A program made the translations under genes and the position numbers. From the sequence record PQ571293: 44,223 nt of DNA; one strand, given 5' to 3'. This DNA is from Escherichia phage EM1. The notes beneath the pieces were generated by a model. The model worked only from the letters and a program-made list of their open reading frames with translations. It was not told the DNA's origin and made no database searches. Of the stretch, positions 11,581-12,389 are shown piece by piece (within the stretch, counting starts at the first letter, position 1; the number at the start of each line of letters is the position of its first letter).

Positions 11581-11611
11581 AAGGCCCCGTTATGGGGCCT
11601 TAGTTTTATTT
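11581..11611. terminator. bidirectional rho-independent terminator (AAGGCCCC-GTTAT-GGGGCCTT)
   Basis: perfect 8 bp stem flanked by A/T tracts on both sides; lies between convergent genes. Confidence 0.6.
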
Positions 11612-11635
11612 AACTCGCTCGGGATTTTTGTTTAA

Positions 11636-12328
11636 TCATAGTTTGAACAGTTTCTCTACAGACGCTTTAGACCCCCCGGACACCCCATTAGCGCTTAAAC
11701 TCGATTTTACTGGCATAGATAAAATCTCTGTAGCAAAATCGGGCGCGGTATACTCGGACACATAAACGTCACAATAGCGCGCCGTTCTTTTAGCCCACCG
11801 CCAAAAAGATACAGAATCAAAAGAATCTTTATAACCAGTAGTGCCTGCATACGGAGGGTCGCAGTATACTAGGCTGCCGTCGGGTATTTCTAAATCCCTG
11901 TAGCAGCAGGACGAGAAAGAAACACCTTGTAGTTTTTCAGCCTGTTTTAAAGCACTATTCAATGCCTCTTTCTGGTAATCCCTGACCCCTTGTTTTGTCT
12001 CTACAACTCCCGCATAACCGCCGAACCATTTACCTGAATATGAACATGCGATACCTGCCCAGCCGATAACATGATCGTCTCCAATTAGCATTCGCAGGCG
12101 AGAGTAATCCTCTCTCGTTATGTGGGGTGGAACCCACCCAGAAACTAATGCCTCAAACATAGCGACAACATATTTATTTATCTCGTTTGCATGGCGACTA
12201 TTCGCACCACCTACGGCAGCTATCATATTCATTCCGCCGGCGAACGGTTCGACATAATCCCGACCTGAAACGTCCATTACCTCTAGAATTTTAGCACTGA
12301 GCCTGGCCTTGCTACCCATATATTTCAT
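11636..12328 (-). CDS. dam: DNA N6-adenine methyltransferase (Dam-like)
   Basis: N-terminal YMGSK motif and catalytic DPPY motif (VYCDPPYAGT); opposite strand to flanking head genes; start may be the upstream GTG at 12343. Confidence 0.85.
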   Translation of the reverse strand: MKYMGSKARLSAKILEVMDVSGRDYVEPFAGGMNMIAAVGGANSRHANEINKYVVAMFEALVSGWVPPHITREDYSRLRMLIGDDHVIGWAGIACSYSGKWFGGYAGVVETKQGVRDYQKEALNSALKQAEKLQGVSFSSCCYRDLEIPDGSLVYCDPPYAGTTGYKDSFDSVSFWRWAKRTARYCDVYVSEYTAPDFATEILSMPVKSSLSANGVSGGSKASVEKLFKL

Positions 12329-12360
12329 AGTAAAAATCCACACGTTAGTAAGTTAACTGA

Positions 12361-12389
12361 ATAGTACCCTATTATGTTGGTGTCTGCAA
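12361..12389 (-). promoter_or_regulatory. sigma70-like promoter on minus strand, TTGCAG -35, 17 nt spacer, TACTAT -10
   Basis: minus-strand reading TTGCAGACACCAACATAATAGGGTACTATTCAG, same motif family as 1294 and the window junction; directly upstream of dam. Confidence 0.5.

Follow-up and report, generated by a model that had tools for sequence, protein, structure and literature searches.

Morons, as Juhala and colleagues are said to have described them in 2000, are promoter-gene-terminator units lying between conserved genes of lambdoid and HK97-like phages. Here we analyze a unit of this kind in Escherichia phage EM1 (PQ571293), whose record of 44,223 nucleotides, called the window throughout, is an essentially complete Kagunavirus (Guernseyvirinae) genome. 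The unit occupies positions 11578 to 12403 and encodes, on the minus strand, a DNA adenine methylase of the Dam fold. Like the lambdoid and HK97-like morons, it has its own promoter and terminator, lies inside a conserved late module, is present in some genomes and absent from others, deviates in G+C content, and carries a dispensable gene. Unlike them, it resides in an apparently virulent phage, so that prophage expression is not the point, and its promoter and terminator form a fixed socket that many cargos reuse in two genera instead of travelling with the gene.

Among described methylases, the N6_N4 methylase of Jerseyviruses (the S100-S123 series and “dunkel”) and of some Kagunaviruses has the same position, orientation, terminator, promoter, and presumed role, but it is a beta-class enzyme (PF01555) of 242 residues with DLPY near its N terminus and has no similarity to the EM1 protein, which is of the D12 class. 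With the Dam enzymes of E. coli (EcoDam) and phage T4 (T4Dam) and with DpnM, the EM1 protein shares the fold, the order of FxGxG before DPPY, the length of the recognition hairpin, an intercalating aromatic residue, and an N-terminal K-[YW]-x-G-x-K, whereas it differs in its 17-20% identity, its score below the dam cut-off, its Phe and Lys residues at base-reading positions, and its nearly GATC-free genome. The Dam of phage T1 is likewise an orphan adenine methylase of similar size (237 versus 230 residues) from a siphovirus of about 45 kb infecting E. coli; unlike the EM1 protein, it belongs to Pfam family PF05869, with no detectable similarity between the two, and GATC is near-normal in T1 and in Klebsiella phage KW1 (observed/expected 0.78 and 0.94). 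Finally, Hia5, Hin1523, and Nma1821 of Mu-like prophages are likewise Dam-related orphans whose recognition domain has diverged, and they too are exchangeable anti-restriction cargo at a fixed accessory site; compared by size and motif spacing only, they are larger, their DPPY starts at residues 191-194 as against 157, and their relaxed specificity has been demonstrated (PMC3299994).

The cassette occupies a socket with exchangeable cargo

The features of the locus are as follows, in positions of the window.

11578..12403, no strand: whole insertion unit (terminator, cargo open reading frame [ORF], leader, and promoter), delimited against relatives with an empty site
11581..11611, no strand: bidirectional intrinsic terminator, common to the Hoc-like gene (plus strand) and the cargo gene (minus strand), from its hairpin and T-runs
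11636..12328 including the stop codon, minus strand: coding sequence of the cargo, a 230-residue alpha-class D12 N6-adenine methyltransferase of predicted Dam fold, from PF02086, phrog_56, and a structure model
12233..12250, minus strand: motif I EPFAGG, residues 27-32, the S-adenosylmethionine-binding FxGxG, from the alignment
11978..12046, minus strand: recognition hairpin of the target-recognition domain, residues 95-117, CSYSGKWFGGYAGVVETKQGVRD, from alignment to a Dam profile
11849..11860, minus strand: catalytic motif IV DPPY, residues 157-160, read in the sequence
12329..12354, minus strand: predicted 5' leader, A/U-rich and without a Shine-Dalgarno sequence, which appears to have come with the methylase cargo
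12358..12389, minus strand: socket promoter TTGCAG-N17-TACTAT-TCA, a repeated element
12404..12708, plus strand: right-hand anchor outside the cassette, with a divergent promoter, a structured leader of about 200 nucleotides, and a terminator before the spanin genes

The flanks of the unit within 11000-13300 match more than 300 Escherichia and Salmonella phages of the Kagunavirus group at 93-94%. To many Kagunaviruses the flanks are 93-97% identical, and a core of 737 bp has no counterpart in these. We fetched 30 Kagunavirus loci from IMG/VR by means of an invariant 25-mer, and the site is readable in 30 genomes (the window, Bas70, XY2, and 27 of the IMG/VR loci). These sites hold 13 types of minus-strand cargo or are empty. 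Besides the 230-residue D12 methylase and the 242-residue N6_N4 methylase, the cargos are ORFs of 173, 141, 114 (with a lipoprotein signal), 102, 101, 94, 92, 81, 70/75 (membrane), 67, and 57 residues, of which Bas70 carries the 67-residue one and XY2 the 173-residue one, which is RusA-like or annotated as a “clamp.” A 14th type, a 179-residue endonuclease-VII-like ORF, is found in Jerseyvirus VSt10. The alignments break just past the terminator (around 11607-11620) and at about 12349, and the terminator is kept in all occupied sites regardless of the cargo.

In six of the 30 genomes (L013, L017, L023, L030, L031, and L032), the site is empty. There, the stop codon of the Hoc-like gene is followed by a different, one-way terminator (GAAGCCCCGAAAGGGGCTTTTT) that leads straight into ...ATTATTCCAGTTATTCC, the sequence found in the window from 12404 on, and none of the six has a leftward promoter. 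The possibility that promoter and terminator are backbone parts outside the unit was rejected, since the empty sites are without both. Because the occupied sites share terminator and promoter around differing ORFs and empty sites exist, we class the region as an expression socket of the moron type whose cargo is exchangeable. A promoter-like element and a terminator enclose the gene, between genes that are adjacent in the six empty-site relatives, and base composition deviates from the surrounding genome: the G+C content of the unit is 0.443-0.46 against 0.505 for the genome, within the lowest 8% of 700-bp windows, and G+C at third codon positions (GC3) is 0.42 against 0.54-0.65 in the structural genes.

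The original prediction had described a self-contained, reverse-oriented transcription unit, and this description is supported by the absence of the whole 11578-12403 block from six of 30 genomes and by the deviant G+C content. The block so delimited nearly coincides with the interval 11581-12389 given in that prediction. Since the orientation is opposite to that of the surrounding operon, independent transcription would be a necessity. The idea that promoter and terminator are private parts of the methylase had to be given up, because they make up a socket common to at least 14 different cargo ORFs.

The unrelated beta-class N6_N4 methylase fills the same socket in the Kagunavirus loci L019 and L037, and the same cargo is annotated as “adenine-specific methyltransferase” in at least 14 GenBank records of Salmonella Jerseyviruses. 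The D12 cassette recurs, with identical junctions, in a metagenomic Kagunavirus contig of 1379 nucleotides (Logan SRR35773031; L040), the representative of a cluster of 48 member sequences. DNA identity between the window and this contig is about 98% over the cassette and about 90% over the adjacent Hoc-like gene, which fits exchange by recombination in the conserved flanks. Homologous recombination in these flanks during co-infection is, in our view, the most likely route of cargo swapping.

Homologues 62-74% identical to the methylase lie in different head-module gaps of other Guernseyvirinae-like contigs of about 44 kb: between spanin and scaffold genes in L004, between portal and MuF genes in L007, and before the terminase genes in L006. 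Each of these has its own sigma-70-like promoter and hairpin terminator, and L004 additionally has an N6_N4 methylase at the position that corresponds to the window's socket. In Klebsiella phage 6991, the homologue is reverse-oriented and follows the large terminase gene. Together with the low G+C and GC3, this distribution suggests that the methylase unit is foreign and mobile.

The methylase represents a phage subfamily of the Dam fold

As originally predicted, the minus strand encodes an adenine methyltransferase with a DPPY motif, located at residues 157-160, and the protein matches PF02086 (D12 class N6-adenine methyltransferases) with 46.6 bits against a cut-off of 22 (E = 4.7e-12) and phrog_56, “DNA methyltransferase,” at 6e-35. 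The order of motifs is that of the D12 class, with EPFAGG (27-32) N-terminal to DPPY (157-160) and the recognition domain between them, and it is kept in 41 homologues. In the alignment of these homologues, E27, P28, F29, G31, and G32 are invariant and align to FCGG of T4Dam and FVGAG of EcoDam; D157 and P159 are invariant as well, and P158 and Y160 nearly so.

An AlphaFold model built on the 41-sequence alignment has a predicted local distance difference test score of 87 and a predicted template modelling (TM) score of 0.85. In a Foldseek search against the PDB, it matches EcoDam (7.8e-11, TM 0.64) and Mcbe1 (7M6B, TM 0.68), followed by T4Dam and DpnM; the best matches lie at TM 0.6-0.68 with 17-20% identity. 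By profile match, motif order, and modelled fold, the protein is a true Dam-fold, alpha-class (D12) enzyme.

The family is large, with at least 3,666 hits at E <= 1e-10, and occurs in phages of Enterococcus, Vibrio, Bacteroides, Klebsiella, Arthrobacter, Mycobacterium, and others. Its chromosomal members lie in prophage or phage early regions, with no nuclease neighbour where the context was read; a restriction partner was rejected on this ground. Judged from these searches, the family is a large, phage-only orphan subfamily of the Dam fold. There is no DNA match to the gene in 5,426 complete E. coli genomes, and among plasmids only two remote Clostridium phage-plasmids are hit, so that an origin from E. 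coli chromosomes, prophages, or plasmids was rejected as well. No Kagunavirus or Jerseyvirus in GenBank carries a member of the family, and the best phage matches, at 61-63%, are in Klebsiella phages; an exact-sequence look-up of the window's methylase returned no record. As to the target motif of the subfamily, the Webervirus papers, the Mcbe1 structure (PDB 7M6B), and the Hia5 paper are silent on specificity.

GATC is probably not the target

The original prediction called the enzyme a Dam, that is, a GATC methylase, and saw a possible use of it in evading mismatch repair. The counts of GATC do not bear out either idea. Given below for each genome are the presence of the methylase family, the observed and expected GATC counts, and their ratio (O/E).

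The window: family present; 9 observed, 148 (Markov) or 173 (base composition) expected; O/E 0.06
Bas70: family absent; 4 observed, 149 expected; O/E 0.03
Other sampled Kagunavirus loci: family mostly absent; O/E 0-0.15
T1, with a true GATC Dam: family absent; 235 observed, 300 expected; O/E 0.78
Webervirus KW1: family present; 295 observed, 313.5 expected; O/E 0.94
Klebsiella phage 6991: family present; 48 observed, 204 expected; O/E 0.24
L004: family present; 1 observed, 27 expected; O/E 0.04

No other tetranucleotide in the window is nearly as depleted as GATC, whose nine sites include one inside the methylase gene. Since relatives without the gene are equally depleted, GATC avoidance is an old backbone trait independent of the gene, and it therefore leaves almost no substrate for a GATC enzyme in a Dam-positive host. 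Several 6-bp palindromes, each with about 11 occurrences expected, are also scarce in the window: AGTACT, GAGCTC, and GGGCCC are absent (0 each), AAGCTT occurs once, and CAGCTG, CTGCAG, GGTACC, and GAATTC occur twice each.

The “Dam” label likewise finds no support in curated models. The protein scores 42.3 bits with TIGR00571 (dam), for which the cut-off is 114.85, and 12.8 bits with the E. coli Dam equivalog NF008152, for which it is 441. Homology to T1 Dam, which the like size had led us to expect, was rejected, as the best BLASTP E value between the two is 8.2 and a Pfam search of the protein gives PF02086 only, with no match to PF05869.

The recognition hairpin was aligned by profile to those of T4Dam and EcoDam, and although identity is only 17-20%, three conserved glycines and the equal hairpin length fix the register; the model has a beta-hairpin at residues 108-117. 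At one position of this alignment, R116 is kept as the equivalent of T4Dam R130, which we take to contact the first base pair. Also kept are Y97 for the intercalating aromatic (EcoDam Y119, T4Dam F111), S98 for the hairpin contact T4Dam S112, and K2 for EcoDam K9, which contacts the first base pair. The positions for intercalation and the first base pair are thus those of Dam, and Y97, K2, and R116 hardly vary within the family. The remaining base contacts are replaced: F102, a nearly invariant Phe, stands where Dam enzymes have the arginine for reading the G of the C:G pair (EcoDam R124, T4Dam R116), and the two residues contacting the T:A pair, EcoDam L122 (T4Dam M114) and EcoDam P134 (T4Dam P126), are K100 and K112. 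In EcoDam, mutation of R124 abolishes discrimination at the C:G pair (PMC4417163, also our source for the residue roles other than that of T4Dam R130). Because neither the curated cut-offs are reached nor the key arginine is present, we do not file the protein as a Dam orthologue, and by these curated measures it is not one.

A further argument comes from Klebsiella phage vB_KpS_KW1 (KW1, a Webervirus; L041), which has three methylases, at 11116-11808, 12105-12797, and 20291-21022. They comprise a member of the window's D12 subfamily (50.7 bits with PF02086), a phrog_757 methylase without a Pfam match, and a T1-type Dam (PF05869) that is 62% identical to T1 Dam. As KW1 carries the family beside a T1-type Dam, the family is arguably not redundant with GATC methylation. 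Altogether, these sequence comparisons suggest that the target of the methylase is probably not GATC.

Expression signals of the cassette

The terminator had been placed at 11581-11611 and called bidirectional, and a hairpin is indeed called there on both strands. It spans 11581-11601, has a G+C-rich stem of 8-9 bp (AAGGCCCC/GGGGCCTT) with a T-run on each strand, and its folding energies for the plus and minus strands are -16.3 and -15.4 kcal/mol (z of about -3 against shuffled sequences).

In the socket promoter (TTGCAG-N17-TACTAT), the -35 element lies at 12389-12384 and the -10 element at 12366-12361, which coincides with the promoter originally proposed at 12361-12389. As a bare sigma-70 match it is weak; as a promoter-type element it is well founded. 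It belongs to a family of 32 nucleotides, TTGCAC-N17-TACTATTCA, found at 1294-1325 (plus strand, no mismatch), 12358-12389 (minus strand, one mismatch), and 21894-21925 (minus strand, no mismatch), with a partial copy at 40798-40814 (plus strand), and each copy directly precedes the first gene of a transcription unit. Among the occupied sites, the TTG of the -35 element and the TAnnAT of the -10 element are conserved in at least 21 of 23, and the promoter is missing from the empty sites. Since near-identical copies recur before operons and the element is conserved in relatives, 12358-12389 is a genuine repeated promoter-type element and no chance match. The copy at 1294-1325 precedes an operon of small ORFs that begins at 1352, and the partial copy precedes the gene of a 71-residue helix-turn-helix regulator at 40843.

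From the position of the -10 element, transcription would start at about 12354. The original prediction had left the start codon ambiguous, noting the lack of a clear Shine-Dalgarno sequence. The candidates are a GTG, which opens the ORF 11636..12343 of 235 residues, and an ATG at 12328, which gives 230 residues. Because the N terminus MKYMGSK is nearly invariant across the 41 aligned homologues (228-245 residues), the start can be fixed as the ATG at 12328. The second half of the earlier statement stands, as no Shine-Dalgarno sequence precedes this ATG and the leader reads ...GUGUGGAUUUUUACU-AUG. The leader is also unstructured (-7.9 kcal/mol, z of +0.5). The other cargos have a leader in common, ...TTAAACAGGAG(G/A)TGA.AAATG, whose Shine-Dalgarno sequence (AGGAG) is strong and from which the methylase leader diverges at about 12349. 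On this alignment, the leader lacking a Shine-Dalgarno sequence entered the socket with the methylase. The RNA sequencing of Kagunavirus K1B4 (PMC12645636), the one Kagunavirus transcriptome found, was considered for expression timing and not used, because its gene numbers have no match in the unannotated record and it resolves time only coarsely.

Surroundings of the socket

Upstream of the cassette, the plus strand encodes the portal protein, a MuF-like head protein, and a Hoc-like protein with an Ig domain; downstream follow a conserved non-coding leader, overlapping Rz/Rz1-type spanin genes, the scaffold gene, and the major capsid gene. The description of the site as lying between head genes is therefore nearly right, except that the nearest downstream genes are those of lysis.

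Across 178 GenBank phages of Kagunavirus and Jerseyvirus, the right-hand anchor (12404-12708) keeps 96-99% identity. Identity to Jerseyviruses is 97-100% in this stretch, as against 73-95% in the capsid genes of those phages and 55-95% over their capsid and other head genes together. In order, it contains TTATTCC/GGAATAA repeats, a 16-bp palindrome, a TTGACT -35 element, an extended -10 element (TGaTAAGCT), an RNA of about 200 nucleotides, and, immediately ahead of the spanin genes, a terminator (12665-12684); the spacing of the rightward promoter is TTGACT-17-TAAGCT with TG. Five pairs of the structured RNA are backed by compensatory double changes. Searching the whole window against Rfam gave nothing at gathering scores and, within 12300-12760, chance-level hits only at permissive thresholds. 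A 36-residue ORF at 12504-12614 (MNKRPRRGQV..., “hypothetical protein” in Bas70) was rejected as probably non-coding, since the changes among its 19 variants are almost only non-synonymous; two variants carry a frameshift or truncation and nevertheless keep the pairs of the RNA hairpin. The layout of a promoter and a terminated leader of about 200 nucleotides, followed by lysis and then head genes, resembles that of PR'-6S RNA-tR' ahead of the late genes of phage lambda. By this analogy, 12404-12708 may be a late-transcription control element.

The palindrome of this element (AACTATTCGAATAGTT; 12442-12457) is a perfect 16-bp one that abuts the rightward -35 element. It is nearly invariant, with one variant among 29 sequences and one base different in L040 as well. 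Related half-sites lie at 12390-12401 (AACTATTTAGTT) and at 12361-12374 (AATAGTACCCTATT), inside the leftward promoter, and the palindrome is a candidate operator of the divergent promoter pair. A genome-wide regulon was rejected, because the palindrome is unique in the genome and so does not belong to a genome-wide operator set. The TTATTCC(A)/TGGAATAA repeats stand at the right edge of the socket, at 12405-12442, and a copy of 19 nucleotides is found at 13214-13232, just upstream of the scaffold gene; in L004, they flank the N6_N4 methylase cassette on both sides (5990-6110 and 6975-7010). Possible functions of these repeats are protein binding and recombination.

A second reverse-oriented island lies in the tail module (19467-21881, minus strand) behind a promoter of the same type, the copy at 21894-21925. 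Its products are a 68-residue Imm-type superinfection immunity protein, an SbcD-like metallophosphoesterase, a PNKP-type phosphatase, and a possible kinase that matches AAA_18 weakly. The genes of the island are candidates for exclusion and for counter-defence by RNA or DNA repair.

Proposed function and alternative explanations

The explanation that we favor, and consider reasonably probable, is that the moron-type socket of EM1 carries an accessory methylase for anti-restriction, whose specificity is probably other than GATC. The socket promoter would fire leftward, and the short transcript would stop at the bidirectional terminator. In the gap that separates the portal/MuF/Hoc terminator from the promoter and leader of the spanin/scaffold/capsid genes, an insertion would disturb neither operon. 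The methylase would be made during infection and modify replicating phage DNA at a short motif, so that progeny virions would carry DNA pre-protected against one or more restriction-modification (R-M) systems of the next host. Early expression, which had been part of the original prediction, would not be required for this.

An anti-restriction role had been proposed on early self-methylation, and it remains plausible in view of the report that Kagunaviruses are highly sensitive to R-M systems (PMC11990801). The C5-methylase that follows the helicase gene in Bas70 has no counterpart in the window, which has HNH endonucleases there instead. Because Kagunaviruses are sensitive to R-M systems and the window lacks the C5-methylase of its relatives, selection for an anti-restriction gene would be logical. 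The replication module of the window holds two HNH_3 endonuclease genes, at 32866-33363 and 33859-34356 (minus strand), the first of them at the position of the C5-cytosine methylase of Bas70. A narrower version of the explanation, namely that the enzyme belongs to a phage-only branch of the Dam fold in which Phe102 and the two lysines go with a new or relaxed motif, and that it is traded as cargo in the Kagunavirus/Jerseyvirus socket, is tentative and falls a little short of an even chance.

Several observations weigh against an active anti-restriction enzyme with a target other than GATC. The cassette promoter matches the sigma-70 consensus at only 7 of 12 positions, and a simple scan made no call. 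The gene has no Shine-Dalgarno sequence, unlike the other cargos, and expression of the methylase may accordingly be weak. The L040 copy reads DPPH for DPPY and FTGG for FAGG, and the DPPH could reflect relaxed selection on the cargo in some lineages. Lastly, the closest solved structures are all those of GATC enzymes. The L040 methylase itself may be an inactive or altered variant.

The last of these points leads to the most serious alternative, a true Dam: a GATC-specific orphan methylase that keeps the few GATC sites methylated, against MboI/DpnII-type restriction or MutH. The Dam-family fold, with EcoDam, T4Dam, and DpnM among the best structural matches, the equal length of the hairpin, the intercalating Y97, and the agreement of S98, R116, and K2 with T4Dam S112 and R130 and EcoDam K9 all speak for it, as does a recognition region almost invariant across phages of very different hosts, which would fit a widely useful 4-bp target. 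The C-terminal SSLSANG..K..EKLF also resembles SISSNGGTRKKVDELL, which we take to be the corresponding sequence of E. coli Dam. What makes this alternative unlikely in our estimate is the replacement of the C:G-reading arginine by a nearly invariant Phe and of both T:A contacts by Lys, the scores far under the TIGR00571 and NF008152 cut-offs, and the presence of only nine GATC sites in 44 kb, with the same depletion in relatives that do not have the gene. In addition, Dam is available from the E. coli host, the T1-type Dam of KW1 would make another GATC enzyme superfluous there, and Klebsiella phage 6991 and L004 carry the family and yet are GATC-poor (0.24 and 0.04).

The recognition region departs from the solved Dam enzymes at base-contacting positions, and the enzyme might instead be a relaxed, near non-specific adenine methylase like Hia5/Hin1523 or M.EcoGII that confers broad protection. 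A divergent recognition region has likewise been described for Hia5 by Drozdz et al. (PMC3299994), the accessory, exchangeable position of the gene recalls that of hia5 at the mom position, and broad protection would explain a spread over phages of many phyla. However, the hairpin sequence is strongly conserved across the family, which suggests defined base contacts and not lost specificity; the protein is shorter than Hia5, with DPPY starting at 157 as against 194; and three different methylases in KW1 would be pointless if one of them were non-specific. We regard this reading as quite improbable. A slightly smaller probability, low in either case, goes to a passenger of little or no function, recently recombined, poorly translated, or decaying, or to a role outside defence, such as the epigenetic control of phage transcription or packaging. 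The missing Shine-Dalgarno sequence beside the strong one of the other cargos, the DPPH of L040, and the dispensability of the gene for the genus would all agree with a passenger, but the window copy is a full-length ORF with all invariant family residues and both catalytic motifs intact, and in the comparison with L040 it is the cassette that is better conserved, not the Hoc-like gene. An essential regulatory or packaging role is excluded, because the gene is missing from nearly all relatives.

Significance

Phage orphan methylases and moron-type units are well known, and an adenine methylase is already annotated in the Jerseyvirus socket; for this reason the finding changes little in the general picture. 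Its additions are modest. The cargo belongs to another methylase family, one fixed socket serves exchangeable ORFs in two genera, and the “Dam” label clashes with a nearly GATC-free genome. The case cautions against naming any DPPY enzyme “Dam,” as here the genome is almost devoid of GATC and the GATC-reading arginine is missing, and it points to a widespread, uncharacterised subfamily of phage methylases. The socket at 11578-12403 has precise borders, accepts insertions naturally, and offers a promoter and a terminator that can be reused, which is relevant to the use of small siphoviruses in synthetic biology and therapy. If the proposed function is correct, the socket would be a natural, predictable docking site for anti-defence genes in a group of phages sensitive to R-M systems.

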